Shown here: in pieces, positions 26,893-28,012 of the stretch
Layout: each line of letters begins with the position of its first letter
Position numbering within the stretch: the first letter of the stretch is position 1
The notes under the pieces: generated by a model
Told to the model about the DNA's origin: nothing
Database searches by the model: none
What the model saw: only the letters and a program-made list of their open reading frames with translations
Made by a program: the position numbers and the translations under genes
DNA from: Octopus vulgaris
Lineage: Eukaryota
Reading direction: 5' to 3'
Length of the DNA stretch: 64,000 nucleotides
Assembly: GCA_951406725.2 (NCBI GenBank)
Contig: OX597827.1
Span: 9,300,001-9,364,000 of the forward strand

Positions 26893-27298
26893 ACGGTCCT
26901 TAATGCCATTACTCTTGGAGTAAATACCTGCAATTTATATAACTCTTAACTTTTTTTTATTTCGGAAGCATAGAACAGAGGCAAGCTTACATTACTTCCA
27001 TCTGATTAAATATTTCTTTTAACTTTTGTTTCCCATCGTTTTGACTCAAAGAGTTAAAAATGGCCTTATTAAAATGTTACAAAATGAAGGTCTATTAAAG
27101 AACGAAGAATAAGTGCTTTATCTACTTTCACTTCATGTTTGGCATTTTGTTTGAGAAATGGAATGTCAATTTAGCCGAAGCTTCAATGAAACTGATGAGT
27201 AAGAGGAACAAATAAACAATCTTTTGGTAAGCAATAGAAGGACAATAACTCTATCCTATAGCATTGAATTATAAGGCCTGTGCTACTGTGATAATCTA

Positions 27299-27896
27299 TG
27301 GCGAGCTGGCAGAATCGTTAGCGTGCCGGGCGAAATGCTTAGCGGTATTTCGTCTGCGTTACGTTGTGAGTTCAAATTCCCGCTGAGGTCGACTTTGCCT
27401 TTCATCCTTTCGGGGTCGATAAATTAAGTACCAGTTACGCACTGGGGTCGATGTAATCGACTTAATACCTATGTCTATCCTTGTTTGTCCGCTCTGCGTT
27501 TAGCCTCTTGTGGGTAATAAAGAAATAGGTATTTCGTCTGCGTTACGTTGTGAGTTCAAATTCCGCCGAGGTCGACTTTGCCTTTCATCCTTTCGGGGTC
27601 GATAAATTAAGTACCAGTTACGCACTGGGGTCGATGTAATCGACTTAATACCTATGTCTGTCCTTGTTTGTCCCCTCTGTGTTTAGCCCCTTGTGGGTAA
27701 TAAAGAAATAGGTATTTCGTCTGCGTTACGTTGTGAGTTCAAATTCCGCCGAGGTCGACTTTGCCTTTCATCCTTTCGGGGGTCGATAAATTAAGTACCA
27801 GTTACGCACTGGGGTCGATGTAATCGACTTAATACCTATGTCTGTCCTTGTTTGTCCCCTCTGTGTTTAGCCCCTTGTGGGTAATAAAGAAATAGG
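27299..27896 (+). mobile_element. SINE family B trimer (one head plus three 183-184-bp bodies) with perfect 15-bp TSD
   Basis: Units start 27344, 27528, 27711; TSD tactgtgataatcta at 27284-27298/27897-27911. Confidence 0.95.
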
Positions 27897-28012
27897 TACT
27901 GTGATAATCTAAGGATGCCACATTTTCTGTGAACAAAATTAGTAACTGCTGTTGGAGGAAATTTTTCATCCCCTCTTCTTTTCATATGTTAGCCTCCATC
28001 TCATGTAGCCTT

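Follow-up and report, generated by a model that had tools for sequence, protein, structure and literature searches.

A SINE trimer behind a single head

How do three SINE units come to stand in tandem behind one Pol III head, inside a single target-site duplication? The question is posed by a locus in the window, by which we mean the whole 64,000-nucleotide stretch of Octopus vulgaris DNA that was analyzed and whose positions are used below. An earlier note on this DNA had described a trimer inserted as one event, and the structural part of that description was confirmed. On the + strand, a single head (27299..27343), slightly 5′-shortened and with three changes relative to the young subfamily, is followed by unit 1 (u1, 184 bp; 27344..27527), unit 2 (u2, 183 bp; 27528..27710), and unit 3 (u3, 184 bp; 27711..27894), and an outer target duplication encloses the whole. 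Each unit ends in a LINE-like tail (27472-27527, 27655-27710, and 27839-27894). Judged against the consensus sequences, an A-box-like motif occurs once, in the head (27307-27318), and a B-box-like motif in every unit (27369-27379 in u1), which agrees with the claim of one A-box head and provides the internal Pol III motifs of a tRNA-derived SINE. A Pol III transcript that started at the head would be expected to run through all three units, as the first T4 downstream of the head lies at 27923..27926. Searches for a tRNA origin of the head returned 0 hits with ARAGORN and no Rfam tRNA match. RNA folding predicts a 12-bp hairpin at 27328..27355 (+), the 3′ strand of which is opened by the insertion site discussed below (body position +1, 27344).

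The units had been called almost identical, and this holds for only one pair. Unit u3 equals u2 plus one G in a G run, and u2 matches the commonest young-subfamily sequence exactly, whereas u1 differs from both at six sites, four of them within positions 133-162. The perfect 15-bp target-site duplication likewise stands as far as it goes: 27284-27298 and 27897-27911 are identical, a repeat expected by chance at ~3e-9 per register, but the full duplication is 17 bp (27282..27298 and 27895..27911) with one mismatch. The right copy begins GGTA. In one contig of organism B (run X6), position 27283 is a G and both copies start GGTA; the C found in the window is retained in a contig of organism D and is likely a later change in the left copy. 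Because of the G in organism B, GG must be counted as part of the target and the element as ending in AAAGAAATA. The same contig led us to reject an RNA-templated GG at this locus.

Elsewhere in the window we observed an unidentified SINE-like repeat, apparently on the minus strand (26400-26737), that ends in a CA/TA microsatellite, and long triplet-repeat tracts with strong strand skew at 37742-38500 and 53815-55544 (TGC, ~255 units; CAC/CCA).

The same junction throughout the family

An exact 18-mer across the tail-to-body junction occurs 44,881 times genome-wide, and an exact head-body 20-mer occurs 30,016 times; the reversed control of each gave 0. The young subfamily, which includes the trimer copy, is represented by 3,380 exact 27-mers, 407 of which lie behind a tail. 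The trimer locus is therefore an ordinary member of its family, and its structure is family-wide. Copies are dispersed and high in number, and target-site duplications are present at 110 of 161 ends. A 1994 work by Ohshima and Okada may name the SINE family.

Note that adjacent junctions were counted in sampled stretches rather than by one genome-wide pattern, and that four of the five element sets were chosen by pattern, such that rates are taken from unselected counts only. In 864 kb of unselected DNA, which includes the window, 67 tail-bearing elements comprised 45 monomers, 15 dimers, 5 trimers, one 4-mer, and one 5-mer. The earlier note had each junction fuse the SINE 3′ end to one internal site, and junction positions indeed proved to be fixed rather than random. 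Among 226 chained junctions from 229 elements (all sets together), 203 lie no more than 3 bases from the body start (+1), 14 at a second site ~32 bases into the head, and 9 are deletions or other joints. The head is present in 117 of 125 arrays. An older dimer of the same family in the window (23474..23888, +) has the identical junction and an 18-bp duplication with one mismatch, and both of its units have one rare variant at position 42 and another at position 55.

Several further features of the family were recorded. The second junction class, at an AGAA site (e.g. L004, L034, and L159), goes with the older 171C tail, and all five terminal AGAA ends (5/5) are 171C. Older relatives that agree in head and body but end in a different tail (72-80% identity) lie in the window at 34447-34604, 52211-52295, 53113-53274, and 58595-58748. 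Near-identical units also form what appear to be early satellites, with ~15 units at L241 (G000:C5:135573116-135575871) and ~9 at L376; the units of these two arrays share one-base insertions or stutters.

SINE tails lie preferentially on the SINE body start

GGT(A) had been proposed as microhomology that joins the units. This interpretation was not sustained, as GGT(A) is the target consensus of the family. The letters that follow terminal tails (n=161) are GGTA in 68 cases and mostly NRTA or GGT in the rest, and the left duplication copy mostly starts with the same letters as the sequence after the tail (110 ends with a duplication). The SINE body itself starts with GGTA. In the 864 kb of unselected DNA, 33 of 89 tails are joined to +1, although +1 sites make up only 172 of the 4,495 GGTA sites present. 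The antisense GGTA at body position 88 received none of these 89 tails, and 5 in the selected sets.

At four loci (L026, L178, block position 159908, and L151), the head of the resident copy has been left upstream of an element that carries a head of its own. These two-head cases are a direct view of DNA-level insertion at +1. Seamless joints at +1 outnumber them 32 to 1 in the unselected DNA.

LINE families with the same 3′ tail

LINEs with a zf-RVT domain carry a SINE-like tail in 21 of 30 loci, and the closest LINE family matches the SINE tail at 75-84% over ~55 nt. The octopus element thus has the further feature of a tRNA-derived SINE, a 3′ tail common to SINE and LINEs. Endonuclease, RT, and zf-RVT domains are encoded in two of the LINE reading frames. 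The partner LINE is putatively of the Tx1 type. No LINE inserted at +1 was found in 30 zf-RVT loci, 20 longer stretches, or 30 pattern loci, nor in 30 relatives of the closest tail, nor at 556 body starts across 1.94 Mb of sequence from stretches that overlap in part, and one pattern search gave 0 hits. Several LINE families have the one common 3′ tail, each followed by its own letters (L242-L291 and L322-L351), and some tail-sharing LINEs are arrayed tandemly, repeating every 5.4 kb (G000:C2:73.046-73.063 Mb). Recently active L1-Tx1 families have been reported in an octopus (PMC13282606), in passages that do not mention SINE arrays of this kind.

First units share rare variants with their neighbor mainly in the 5′ part

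The evidence leans modestly toward a trimer built by successive insertions at the internal GGTA, each completed when synthesis moved in register to the resident copy. A LINE protein, presumably of the Tx1 type, would nick at +1 and prime on the SINE tail. The new strand would then leave the incoming RNA and continue in register on the resident copy, and each such switch should add exactly one 183-184-bp unit and no second head. The switch would also rebuild the +1 site, making the step repeatable, and the outer duplication would date the first insertion.

Copying from the resident should be visible as rare variants held in common by adjacent units. Such variants occur in 10 of 101 arrays, compared with 0.56 after permutation. 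Across 116 junctions in dimers, a rare variant found in the second unit recurs in the first in 12 of 145 instances at positions 10-80 versus 1 of 129 at positions 119-174 (p=0.003; shuffled sharing level 0.6%). Overall sharing in dimers is 4.3%, and most dimers share none. The polarity is not significant in longer arrays (133 junctions, p=0.24) or in the 97 dimers without the tail stutter described below (p=0.07); smaller preliminary subsets returned p=0.053 and 0.034, and 70 pooled pairs gave a nonsignificant p=0.36. At one locus (L309), the first unit follows the resident's other-type sequence as far as position 107 and continues with the SINE's own tail.

A second locus in the window displays the same arrangement on a larger scale. 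At 24016..24809 (+), a 397-bp tandem pair consists of a 166-bp flank plus SINE, twice. The tail of copy 1 is attached to a GGTA that lies 166 bp upstream of the resident head. Copy 1 has seven variants in common with the resident up to position 67 and none beyond, and has the young tail state at three diagnostic sites (positions 123, 127, and 171). This pattern is what one would expect of a cDNA that was primed at this GGTA and then continued, in register, on the resident. The pair is therefore likely a genomic flank duplicated by retrotransposition, with copy 1 a chimera, as judged from its sequence. This geometry was seen at 1 of 188 terminal tails. What is new here is that the first unit of dimers shares rare variants with the second in its 5′ part only, and that the 397-bp duplication has the same pattern.

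These tracts bear on an alternative that also begins with insertion at +1. In this account, a nested copy arrives with its own head and a short duplication, the interval between the heads is later deleted, and more units are added by unequal exchange or slippage. The two-head cases supply its starting structure; the long homogeneous arrays (15 units at L241 and 9 at L376) and ABAB patterns (L225 and L231) resemble DNA-level growth, and the equality of u2 and u3 at the trimer is compatible with a recent slip. However, a deletion between two heads should transfer only the short duplication, about 15 body bases, whereas actual sharing reaches positions 40-117 and the 397-bp case copied 166 bp of flank and a further 67 bp of body. 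A 5′-biased dimer also should not be able to arise from a monomer by unequal exchange, and the 32 to 1 excess of seamless joints is hard to reconcile with resolution by later deletion. We consider this account unlikely, and in-register switching after insertion at +1 remains our preferred reading.

The units of the trimer probably differ in age

If the trimer had been inserted as one event, as the earlier note proposed, its units should have accumulated changes at similar rates. Instead, u1 has six changes (nine together with the head), and u2 plus u3 have no substitution in 366 bp. The probability of the latter is 0.001-0.02 at 1.05-1.9% per lineage, a value that refers to the insertion's minimum age, assumes a neutral clock, and concerns a locus picked for the likeness of its units. 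The left junction was found in runs of organisms A, B, and D and the right junction in A and C, in contigs with as many as 15 mismatched letters and 2 gaps over 421 relative to the window, with flanks that differ by 2-4%. Because u1 is changed and u2 and u3 are clean even though the insertion is shared with organisms in which the flanking DNA has diverged by 2-4%, one event is unlikely at this locus. The trimer, with its unit number as assembled, likely grew stepwise. For the second refuting condition of the earlier note, a monomer at orthologous loci that expanded later, this is indirect evidence. The one-G difference, or the unit number, could be an assembly error. Eight runs, whose short contigs all break within the repeat, yielded no allele with fewer units, and no empty-site joint was among the matches listed for them. 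Runs with a small share were excluded. The latest unit (u2 or u3) could reflect either an early switch or a DNA-level slip, which would be indistinguishable here.

Unit ages were also compared across the family. In 21 arrays, the last unit ends before the tail, mostly in another tail type, and has more private changes than the preceding units in 17 (means 9.9 versus 4.1, p=3e-4); the other tail is not clear in two of these arrays, and the age contrast is partly a subfamily difference that could be only partly removed. None of 68 other-type tails is joined to +1. Middle units are younger than monomers (0.8% versus 1.7% per site, p=0.05). In arrays that end in the SINE's own tail, the ages of first and last units do not differ (p=0.28-0.39), and duplication mismatches are about as frequent as in monomers (11/548 versus 8/303). 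Thirteen all-young dimers fit one insertion of a dimer RNA equally well as two insertions.

Several of these observations suit a second alternative, in which read-through from one head of a multimeric source copy yields a multimeric RNA that is inserted in one event. No T4 interrupts the trimer before 27923, and the duplications of own-tail arrays are about as intact as those of monomers. In two arrays (L367 and L373), common rare variants appear in identical order, which hints at a common dimer source, and at a third (L226) 11 letters of the right end agree with the unit start, compared with 1 for the left copy. Matches of this sort are longer on the right than on the left by only 16 to 7, however, and the trimer's own case is likely a later change. 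A multimeric master for the trimer, one of the causes offered by the earlier note, is not supported, as a 35-mer of u1 occurs once in the genome, and the unit age asymmetry at the trimer argues in the same direction. Such an RNA would also leave the first origin of the junctions unexplained. We regard this route as decidedly unlikely.

Very unlikely, in our estimate, is a single insertion with repeated end-to-end jumps between SINE RNAs that were cut or ended at +1. R2 is reported to jump in vivo (PMC3414825), +1 lies at the loop edge of the predicted hairpin, stuttered 5′ junctions (L142, L156, and L163) point to a jump-prone enzyme, and both the fixed junction and the mixed units within one duplication would follow. 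On the other hand, two-head insertions with a duplication at +1 point to a DNA target, last units are older and middle units younger, and the 397-bp case includes genomic flank. From the template jumping that had been put forward earlier, we retain that a template switch was likely involved; its occurrence in one event is not supported.

Rolling-circle reverse transcription of a circular 184-nt RNA, also put forward in the earlier note, is scarcely credible despite the constant unit length and the few arrays with one rare variant in all units (L163). A circle would carry no head, but heads are kept in 117 of 125 arrays. The proposed check on unit divergence found units barely more alike within arrays than between them, with medians of 18 versus 20 changes in sets not selected for youth (37 and 2,448 pairs) and 7 versus 9 in young sets (133 and 11,495 pairs). 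Purely young arrays account for 16 of 64 in the young sets, and the others mix subfamilies. The retained head, mixed units, and low likeness within arrays are thus each the opposite of what a circle predicts. No Rfam ribozyme matched a unit at E<=10, a search that speaks to known ribozyme classes only, and two chance Rfam hits fall outside the units. A structured circle was rejected on its folding score (z=0.07).

Tail stutter and a possible fold-back of the cDNA

A total of 376 junctions fit an extra-letter pattern, in which the added letters usually repeat the final six bases of the tail. This six-base stutter has 454 copies, and by our own count 91 of the first 100 are on +1. The terminal tails of 25 stuttered arrays are without stutter, one automatic call having proven to be a TA-run artefact. 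The six bases are complementary to body positions 3-8, and tail and target together form the palindrome GAAATA-GG-TATTTC. At positions 10-80, rare variants are shared in 5 of 19 instances in stuttered dimers versus 7 of 126 in others.

We tentatively suggest, as a possibility well short of even, that the SINE is a self-amplifying satellite seed whose cDNA folds back, releases the RNA, and switches to the resident copy, adding one unit per round and restoring the target. The stutter would then be the footprint of the fold-back. Alternatively, a subfamily with a longer tail is a possible source of the stutter. If the fold-back reading is true, the lengths of switches made in vivo during the second half of target-primed insertion would be preserved in tens of thousands of junctions.

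Two further observations concern the junctions. At three loci (L142, L156, and L163), 5′ junctions with re-copied pieces of target or head look like repeated short jumps before the final joint. A T4 formed by CpG decay just behind junctions was considered and rejected, as there is no excess (2/25 versus 5/51).

Taken together, the GGTA bias, the excess at +1, the one head per array, the mixed subfamilies, the 5′-biased copying, and the tail shared with LINEs support self-insertion followed by a switch. Against it we count the few shared variants, the null results for polarity, the 1/188 geometry, the absence of a LINE at +1 in the loci searched, the all-young dimers, the equal age of first and last units, the mostly pattern-chosen loci, and the absence of an allele with fewer units among the runs. 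The 5′ completion of LINE-type insertion is still poorly resolved, and tandem-repeat seeding has mostly been argued from old arrays. Both processes are likely at work in this one family, at a fixed site and in at least 44,881 instances, with measurable copied tracts, and the value of the finding lies in this family-wide mechanism rather than in the single locus.

Comparison with known systems

We found no paper that describes self-targeting SINE arrays in a literature search whose scope left subscription papers and Repbase outside. Non-LTR retrozymes form short tandem arrays with a 170-400-nt unit. Unlike them, the octopus arrays are without a ribozyme match, retain the head, and have mixed units. 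Squamate SINE-derived satellites (sSat), as described in the relevant part of PMC10702118, are similar in having units shorter than the SINE and one longer end unit. Their boundaries vary and recombination is invoked, whereas the octopus boundary is fixed and the arrays are dispersed and mostly of 2-5 units; the trimer has one middle unit, where at least four, together with a subtelomeric bias, are asked of an sSat. MetaSINE and other mollusc SINE superfamilies are recognized by a shared central domain; in a motif search, short motifs of the octopus body were absent from the supplements searched from PMC4824008 and PMC4758252, and these two papers gave no placement for the family.

Precedents exist for the proposed switch. 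In L1 templated insertions, as far as the consulted portions of the two reports go, the nascent cDNA quits its RNA and copies and duplicates nearby genomic DNA (10.1101/2024.08.27.596794; PMC2912911). These events are rare, with 22 cases (10.1101/2024.08.27.596794), whereas the octopus event is likely recurrent at a fixed site. For R2, 5′ joints that are precise and seamless have been attributed to a heteroduplex between the new cDNA and its target, with a minority that keep a duplication (PMC3774820). The annealing of R2 involves at most 36 nt on the upstream side of the nick; in the octopus, by contrast, homology spans the entire element, and the tract that is copied is downstream of the nick and adds a tandem unit.

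The closest parallel for the target is SINEU-3 of crocodilians, whose preference for another repeat is attributed to LINEs of the Tx1 clade, Tx1-Mar (PMC4494074, in the sections drawn on here). The octopus SINE shows a target preference of the same kind, and the tandem copies of SINEU-3 have likewise been interpreted as sequential insertions. The target of SINEU-3 is Mariner and a duplication stands between its tandem copies, whereas the octopus SINE uses its own body start and leaves seamless arrays with one head. In this comparison, the octopus SINE works like a target-preferring SINE served by a Tx1 LINE.
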